Shown: positions 30,317 through 30,420 of the stretch, piece after piece | How the letters are laid out: every line of letters starts with the position of its first letter | How positions within the stretch are numbered: position 1 is the stretch's first letter | From: Gemmatimonadota bacterium | GTDB taxonomy: Bacteria; Gemmatimonadota; Gemmatimonadetes; Palauibacterales; KS3-K002 | Assembly (NCBI GenBank): GCA_020344215.1 | Contig: CP070815.1 | Span: 2,600,644 to 2,664,643 of the forward strand | DNA: 64,000 bases | Reading direction: 5' to 3' | Program-made: the position numbers and the translations under genes | The notes under the pieces: model-generated | Told to the model about the DNA's origin: nothing | The model's database searches: none | The model's input: only the letters and a program-made list of their open reading frames with translations

Positions 30317-30420
30317 CCGACTGTCGAATGTCGAATACTGAATGGTGAAGTTTGAAGGCGGGTGTCTGCCCGCCCTTCATTTCGTCATTCGACATTTAGT
30401 GTTCAGTATTCGGGATTCGG
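30317..30420. repeat. Imperfect palindrome built of heptamer tandem repeats (TGTCGAA-like arm / TTCGxCA-like arm) around a short GC hairpin. Lies between convergent hypE and hypF.
   Basis: Left arm tgtcgaa tgtcgaa tactgaa tggtgaa gtttgaa. Centre gcgggtgtctgcccgcc. Right arm ttcgtca ttcgaca tttagtg ttcagta ttcggga. Confidence 0.7.

Follow-up and report, generated by a model that had tools for sequence, protein, structure and literature searches.

A heptamer-array hairpin between convergent hypE and hypF in a Gemmatimonadota bacterium: a candidate member of a dispersed, REP-like family of gene-end palindromes

In the 64,000-nucleotide stretch of Gemmatimonadota DNA analyzed here (hereafter, the window; 65.6% GC), the convergent hydrogenase-maturation genes hypE and hypF are separated, from stop codon to stop codon, by a spacer of 146 nt, of which 137 bases (30300-30437) form a predicted hairpin with 54 pairs, 8 of them G-U, when the plus strand is folded. 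Assignment of hypE is based on the open reading frame and its AIRS and AIRS_C Pfam domains; homologues of the encoded protein carry HypE names, and the length of 350 aa is also found in relatives. The product of hypF contains acylphosphatase, zf-HYPF, Sua5/YrdC, HypF_C and HypF_C_2 domains and is equal in length to that of the relative L164. The order of the genes places hypC and hypD upstream of hypE, and hypB downstream of hypF. The termini of both HypE and HypF match those of their homologues, and the spacer is therefore non-coding; the open reading frames that overlap it were considered as potential coding sequences and rejected as by-products of the flanking genes. Genes for multihaem cytochromes c (24747-27584, 34669-35895 and 38663-40303) surround the hyp cluster, and one of these also encodes a fused Ni-hydrogenase cytochrome b domain. 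The window genes scanned included no identifiable hydrogenase structural genes. The features of the locus are the following (those given without a sign carry no strand assignment):

29244-30296, plus strand: hypE, 350 aa, ending with a stop codon 3 nt ahead of the hairpin
30300-30321: outer 5' stem segment, GC-rich and non-periodic, TGGAGACGGGCAGCGCTCCGAC; paired with 30416-30437 in both the minimum-energy and the centroid fold
30322-30356: 5' arm, five degenerate heptamers with a GAA end, assigned period 7 by TRF: TGTCGAA (30322-30328), TGTCGAA (30329-30335), TACTGAA (30336-30342), TGGTGAA (30343-30349) and GTTTGAA (30350-30356)
30357-30374: central GC hairpin at the tip of the fold, GGCGGG-TGTC-TGCCCGCC; 7 pairs, 6 of them G-C
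about 30375-30422: 3' arm, detected with the 5' arm as an inverted-repeat pair; a mirror array of heptamers starting with TTC or TTT and one 5-nt unit, reading from 30376 TTCATTT, CGTCA (5 nt), TTCGACA, TTTAGTG, TTCAGTA, TTCGGGA and TTCGGAG
30416-30437: outer 3' stem segment, TTCGGAGCCAGCCACGTCCCGG; paired with 30300-30321
30443-32716, minus strand: hypF, 757 aa; its stop codon lies 6 nt beyond the hairpin

The two arrays, of five and of six to seven units, are separated by 19 nt and run in convergent orientation on opposite strands, beginning 26 nt past the hypE stop codon and finishing 21 nt short of that of hypF. The central GC hairpin lies 61 nt past the former and 69 nt short of the latter and is followed, on the plus strand, by CTTCATTTCG. 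The GAA-ending heptamers, the array on the TTC side and the GC tip that made up the original prediction are all present in the sequence. The location proposed for the element (30317-30420) was likewise correct, but its extent was too narrow, because the GC-rich outer segments pair as well.

The fold and the periodicity were compared with shuffled sequences. The RNA fold of the plus strand has an energy of −69.8 kcal/mol (z = −6.5), that of the minus strand −57.2 kcal/mol (z = −5.8), and the DNA fold of the element −34 (z = −5.5); none of 200 shuffles matched the native fold in any of the three cases. Thus, the hairpin on which the original prediction hung is strongly predicted for the transcripts of both strands. 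Autocorrelation at period 7 reaches 0.71 in the left arm (z = 5) and 0.68 in the right arm, a value of 0.71 being attained by 0.02% of the 35-nt segments across the 64 kb, all of which lie in other intergenic hairpins. Relative to shuffled arms, the arm periodicity has a z-score of 7.0. The pattern (GAAnnnn)x4-GAA is unique to the hypE-hypF element in 1.4 Mb (the window together with related loci, both strands), and the GC content of the element is 0.52-0.55 vs. 0.66 for the genome.

A chance low-complexity stretch is hard to reconcile with fold and periodicity statistics so far beyond those of the shuffles. An artefact would be a natural suspicion, given that palindromes can be made or broken by assemblers and that one Logan contig (SRR35494108_2104, denoted L170) terminates within the 3' arm of another hairpin of the window, locus 1 (12353-12480). 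However, two independent Logan assemblies, built from separate runs, reproduce the hypE-hypF spacer of the window with 100% identity, which argues that the element is no assembly artefact. Chance or artefact is, in our judgment, scarcely credible, and the hypE-hypF hairpin is a real, well-defined element. The truncated contig suggests that short-read assemblies break at periodic palindromes, whose number in MAGs may be underestimated.

The similar elements elsewhere on which the original prediction also depended exist both in the window and in relatives. Including the hypE-hypF element, the window holds about seven hairpins with periodic arms, the others being:

12353-12480: locus 1, arms of 6-nt units; in a convergent spacer; identical in other assemblies
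18135-18200: a weaker hairpin just past a stop codon, with units of the GGGATTC/CGAATCC type
20906-20990: heptamers of the GAACATC type, between convergent SSF transporter and PspA-like genes
44585-44680: GGTCRGT heptamer subfamily, in a convergent spacer
60206-60273: 6-nt units, between coxIII and coxIV
60981-61055: GGTCRGT subfamily, between coxI and coxIII, within the cox operon

Locus 1 has the same build as the hypE-hypF element, with 6-nt units, so that the likeness in architecture previously noted between the two holds. All seven hairpins are located directly 3' of a stop codon. By spacer type, 4 of the 8 convergent spacers are occupied, as are 3 of the 34 co-directional ones (two of these in the cox operon) and none of the 8 divergent ones (p = 0.04 for convergent vs. 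divergent and p = 0.02 for convergent vs. co-directional). Across 365 kb (the window and the closest relatives), every hairpin with an arm periodicity of z at least 6 is intergenic and has a period of 7-8, and the periodic hairpins within genes have a codon-related period of 6. Many of the elements do not have a GC tip, and both arm polarities are represented. The hairpins at 60206 and 60981 interrupt coxI/coxIII/coxIV, normally one operon, and, by analogy with REP in the mal operon, may set the relative expression of the cox subunits. An in-frame reading of the 60206 element on the minus strand yields an acidic peptide (...ENENDDEDEDDG...).

Contrary to the earlier notion that such elements are alike in build without sharing sequence, several of them are related. 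The elements at 44585-44680 and 60981-61055, 16 kb apart, are two copies of one GGTCRGT subfamily, with an alignment that covers both arms and extends into the GGAG/CTCC flanks. The units of the GGGATTC/CGAATCC type at 18135-18200 are shared with the outer 3' arm of the hypE-hypF element, and GAACATC/GATGTTC units recur at non-orthologous sites, namely, in the window element at 20906 (W20906) and in the related loci L001, L011 and L164b. In general, 8-mers common to different elements exceed the expectation from dinucleotide shuffles (z = 7.8), and 7-mers are also in excess. In 1.4 Mb, GTCGAAnGTCGAA was found only in the hypE-hypF element and, in the opposite arm, in the element that occupies the same spacer in L003. 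No second copy of the hypE-hypF element sequence was detected in the window or in the 1.4 Mb of loci, and no other members of its own subfamily elsewhere in the window. A single unit consensus proposed by eye, TCRRTGK, was discarded, given that three tandem matches to it occur nowhere. Judged by the unit sequences, the family does not follow one consensus but is divided into several subfamilies, whose unit lengths are 6, 7 and about 8 nt. The 3' arms at 44585 and 60981 hold GATCACC/GATCACT, resembling the WATCACW heptad of the pSM19035 omega protein (ParB); this resemblance is probably a coincidence.

To place the element in its evolutionary setting, about 25 relatives with 77-88% HypE identity were surveyed for their hypE-hypF spacer. 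Hairpins with heptamer arms of different sequence occupy this spacer in L001, its near-twin L163, L003 and L011, the L001 element being about 190 nt long. In L164, L002, L004-L007, L010, L012 and others, the spacer is 20-60 nt long and holds no hairpin, and the remaining relatives have short or GC-rich spacers without periodic arms. L164, with 84% identity and the same gene order, has a spacer of just 20 nt. Close relatives therefore cope with a 20-nt spacer that has no hairpin, which makes the element dispensable. L164 itself carries elements at two other sites, after an SSF transporter gene and after a multihaem cytochrome gene; the window has an element unlike that of L164 at the first of these sites and none at the second. 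Such differences in the occupancy of orthologous spacers imply that elements are gained, lost or replaced over a short evolutionary scale. In L003 (5040-5287; MAG M3-44_Bin_235), the hypE-hypF spacer is filled by a nested, near-perfect hairpin of 240 nt with 100 pairs and −155 kcal/mol, in which several different heptamer arrays are nested; this arrangement suggests that the palindrome grew stepwise.

A metagenome scan with HypE produced 80 loci, and no heptamer hairpin was present in the 13 closest spacers inspected (L081, L082, L084-L093 and L100), none of which came from a relative above 83%. Exact-protein look-ups with HypE, CoxIII and the protein of the gene beside locus 1 returned only contigs 100% identical to the window; strain-level copies thus offer no variants in unit number or length. 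In more distant Gemmatimonadota relatives, heptamer arrays occur as plain direct repeats with no inverted counterpart: (GGGAAGA)x5 in L029 (6655-6708), CTGCCAA/CCGCCGA-type units in L024 (2821-2863) and CGCCAGT x2 in L057 (6826-6868).

Selection on structure or periodicity rather than on sequence, as put forward in the original prediction, is not demonstrated by these comparisons. The element is missing from the equivalent spacer in close relatives. Between L001 and L163, the elements differ by 3.3% and the third codon positions in the neighboring genes by about 5%; none of the six differences in the elements is cleanly compensatory, a divergence pattern that, on the sequences compared, is near neutral. 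The bias in G-U pairs between the strands, described below, is inconsistent across the class.

These observations bear on whether the elements are purely selfish or neutral dispersed palindromes, MITE/REP-like or self-expanding foldback DNA, merely tolerated at gene ends, with no role for hypE or hypF. Such a reading accommodates the presence/absence differences between the window and L164 at three orthologous spacers (hypE-hypF, after the multihaem cytochrome gene and, with unrelated sequence, after the SSF gene), the related units at non-orthologous loci, the near-neutral divergence, the element GC of 0.52-0.55 in a genome of 0.66, and nested forms larger than a terminator needs, such as the 100 bp and −155 kcal/mol of L003 or the approximately 190 nt of L001. 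The usual marks of a mobile element are missing, however: there are no terminal inverted repeats beyond the arms and no target duplication (by eye, no direct repeats flank 30300 and 30437), no similar, let alone near-identical, copy was seen, none of about 45 window genes encodes a transposase or Y1/RAYT domain, and a BLAST search with the element gave no match in collections of plasmids and phages. The GC tip with its T-rich tail and the excess of G-U pairs on the plus strand, moreover, hint at use by the host, and a selfish origin is compatible with function, as is the case for REP elements. On balance, we rate the purely selfish or neutral reading as rather unlikely, although turnover, oversized nesting and near-neutral divergence support it well. 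A bolder proposal, to which we assign a low probability, is that some Gemmatimonadota harbor a previously undescribed kind of self-propagating or self-expanding foldback DNA, whereby palindromes of 6-8-nt units would seed at gene ends, grow by nesting (to stems of up to 100 bp) and spread between loci. Combined with what is seen in Xanthomonas, Geobacter, cyanobacteria and Beggiatoaceae, such DNA would suggest a heptamer-generating mechanism or enzyme common to all these lineages.

A regulatory RNA with a conserved structure and a specific tie to the hyp genes, i.e. a small RNA, a riboswitch-like element or a processing site, would account for a strong and statistically unusual fold adjoining hyp genes. 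Yet neither the sequence nor the presence of the element is kept at the locus among relatives, the same architecture stands beside unrelated genes, and the fold is simply one long stem that lacks conserved loops or junctions. The search against Rfam gave no matches at the gathering threshold in the whole window and no family match to the element even at E = 10, the best hit at the locus (E = 0.5) being to an unrelated snoRNA model. We therefore consider a hyp-specific regulatory RNA very improbable.

The position of the elements directly past stop codons brings up a role at transcript ends. We consider it about an even call that the hypE-hypF element belongs, as one copy, to a dispersed and lineage-specific family of REP-like palindromes, likely serving as a shared transcript-end hairpin. 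A function as a terminator or 3'-end protector is likely, as far as can be judged from the sequence, and clearer for hypE than for hypF. In a 20-kb scan, the plus strand shows no better terminator-like site than the GC stem with its T-rich tail: the tail CTTCATTTCG has 5 T in 8 and passes, although its U-tract is poor and interrupted, whereas the minus-strand tail TTCAAACTTC fails the same scan. The tip with its tail resembles the canonical terminators of the lineage, such as the site at 36007-36051 of the window (minus strand) and a site near 16700 in L164 that is composed of an A-tract, a stem and a T-tract. The L164 element after the SSF gene, between convergent genes, is also built around a clamp, GAAGGGCC...GGCCCTTC, with periodic arms on either side. 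The site at 36007-36051 combines a perfect 16-bp GC palindrome with a downstream TTTCTATTGTT on the minus strand, which makes a canonical intrinsic terminator, and sits in a 1-kb stretch (35896-36969) with no gene according to the GC3-based call, where L164 has genes.

The two strands also differ in wobble pairing, with 8 G-U pairs in the plus-strand fold vs. 2 in the minus-strand fold, and the former is more stable by 12.6 kcal/mol. This excess fits tuning of the element to the hypE transcript, although for the hypE-hypF element alone the bias is not significant (p = 0.11). Among the four window elements that serve one direction, the asymmetry is 21 vs. 9 (p = 0.02), but elements in relatives disagree.

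According to the transcript-end reading, the element would be transcribed into the 3' end of the hypE or hypF message. As RNA polymerase leaves hypE, the GC tip (GGCGGG/CCCGCC) would fold first, while the U-rich CUUCAUUUCG is still in the hybrid, and this combination would bring about intrinsic-type termination of the hypE transcript. The periodic arms would then zip into the 54-pair stem and shield the message against 3'-to-5' exonucleases. On the minus strand, the same palindrome could act as a weaker equivalent for hypF. The heptamer periodicity itself would most likely be a trace of origin, conceivably through slippage-type duplication of units combined with arm-to-arm copying by template switching, and is probably no functional requirement.

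Termination cannot, however, be the general role of the family, because two members sit within the cox operon, where a full terminator between coxI, coxIII and coxIV would be harmful, and because many members have no GC tip. By analogy, the family behaves like REP, i.e. as dispersed extragenic palindromes whose effect appears to be set by location.

A role in double-stranded DNA was also considered, whereby the opposed heptad arrays would be cooperative protein sites of the omega/ParB kind or, as in BIME with IHF or gyrase, sites for nucleoid proteins. The strict 7-bp phase across five units per arm would suit such binding, for which there are precedents: known proteins bind at least four contiguous heptads, direct or inverted (PMC9499535), and the paired arrays of Geobacter metallireducens have been proposed as IHF/HU sites (PMC2700814). 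The occurrence of both arm polarities in the family would, in addition, matter less for DNA binding than for RNA. Against this, the units vary strongly among elements (TGTCGAA, GGTCRGT, GAACATC, and 6-mers, e.g. CTCGTA), which makes a single sequence-specific binder unlikely, and within the hypE-hypF element they are degenerate, GAA alone being constant. Furthermore, the elements are found at gene ends and never in promoter spacers, and no candidate binding protein is linked to them, with no RHH or ParB gene adjoining. Protein-binding arrays are thus an improbable explanation.

Two other regions of the window deserve mention. At 57128-57305, there is a very stable non-periodic hairpin (about −100 kcal/mol) with arms GAGGGAGGGGGCGGGAGGACCAC and GTGGTTCTCTCGCCCCCTCCCTC that are 91% complementary. 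It is located in the divergent spacer between an ABC transporter gene and a gene starting at 57371 and is of another kind than the gene-end elements, perhaps a leader or a regulatory structure. The region with the lowest GC content in the window (0.38; 40276-40492), in which no repeats were noticed, falls within a 344-nt spacer upstream of the multihaem cytochrome gene on the minus strand (38663-40303) and is probably a promoter or leader region.

Intergenic DNA in several bacterial lineages is known to be enriched in heptamer repeats (PMC4692102, PMC4679880). Gemmatimonadota are an additional phylum with such arrays, and no description of elements of this kind in Gemmatimonadota was found in the literature searched. 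The form seen in the window is a further addition, its arrays always being paired into long gene-end hairpins and several unit types coexisting in one genome. Gain, loss and nested growth of arrays are visible between close relatives, so that both their origin (slippage with arm-to-arm copying vs. a mobile element) and their function (terminator or stabilizer vs. protein-binding array) become testable. For annotation, the elements call for caution, being neither genes nor conserved RNAs and capable of disrupting assemblies.

The arms of the family are degenerate tandem arrays of 6-8-nt units, mostly of 7 nt, for which REP/BIME and the Xanthomonas pairs are comparable systems. REP and BIME are transcribed extragenic imperfect palindromes located at operon ends, between convergent genes or between cistrons, present or absent between relatives, that stabilize the upstream mRNA and sometimes terminate transcription; REPs are 20-40 nt long, highly similar within a genome, have a conserved head of the GTAG type and are tied to RAYT transposases. 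The hypE-hypF element is likewise an extragenic imperfect palindrome, with sisters between the cox cistrons. It differs in its length of 137 nt, in being built of tandem units, in the lack of a near-identical copy and in the absence of a RAYT gene among about 45 window genes. The short conserved unit in many near-identical copies that defines REP was not seen; the GGTCRGT subfamily has two copies. REP/BIME is thus the best functional analogue, by comparison of position and form, although its defining features are not shared.

Bidirectional intrinsic terminators consist of a GC-rich stem-loop between convergent stop codons, bordered by A-rich sequence on the 5' side and T-rich sequence on the 3' side. 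The hypE-hypF element has a similar layout, in which each strand would read as a hairpin with a U-rich tail, but its U-tract is weak and interrupted (and on the minus strand fails the scan), its pairing extends through periodic arms of 35-48 nt, and members of its family are found inside an operon. Among tandem heptamers in particular lineages, those of cyanobacteria (STRR) were reportedly described by Mazel et al. in 1990. In Beggiatoaceae, TAACTGA repeats are positioned immediately before start codons, and there is one indirect repeat among 170 sets (PMC4679880). Both are abundant and intergenic, as here, and TACTGAA resembles TAACTGA; however, they are mostly direct arrays rather than gene-end hairpins. 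The omega protein of pSM19035 (ParB), of the ribbon-helix-helix type, binds contiguous 7-bp heptads, direct or inverted, in arrays of four or more (PMC9499535), but its sites belong to a plasmid promoter or centromere, their heptad follows a fixed consensus, WATCACW, and the gene for the binding protein is linked to them, none of which applies here.

The nearest described systems are the inverted heptamer pairs of Xanthomonas and, after these, the arrays of Geobacter metallireducens. In the latter, classes 1-3 are paired arrays of 7-9-mers on opposite strands, e.g. MTYCTGA x5 (Aklujkar et al. 2009, PMC2700814). Shared traits are three to five tandem units on each of the opposed strands, a variable distance between them, multiple intergenic copies, several subfamilies in one genome (there of 7, 8 and 9 nt) and absence from a sister species. 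The Geobacter arrays, however, form near-identical BLAST families, interpreted as IHF/HU sites, with adjoining insertion sequences, whereas neither an association with insertion sequences nor high identity of copies was seen here. In Xanthomonas, GGGAATC arrays form 70-75 inverted pairs per genome of about 65% GC (Rehm et al. 2015, PMC4692102); they are mostly located within 50 bp of stop codons, are capable of forming stem-loops, and 83% of the sites are retained between two species (PMC4692102). The elements described here agree with these pairs in having about 4-5 tandem heptamers per array, in the convergent arrangement of the arrays on opposite strands, and in their intergenic location near stop codons, with none in divergent spacers here (0 of 8) and a length that varies between related genomes. 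The differences are that Xanthomonas has one conserved G-rich unit with G-quadruplex potential, whereas the units here are diverse and mostly devoid of G-tracts (the GGGAATC unit of the G-quadruplex type is absent, and TGTCGAA, TACTGAA, TGGTGAA and GTTTGAA have no G-tracts), that the sites here turn over between relatives, and that the hypE-hypF hairpin carries a separate GC hairpin at its tip.
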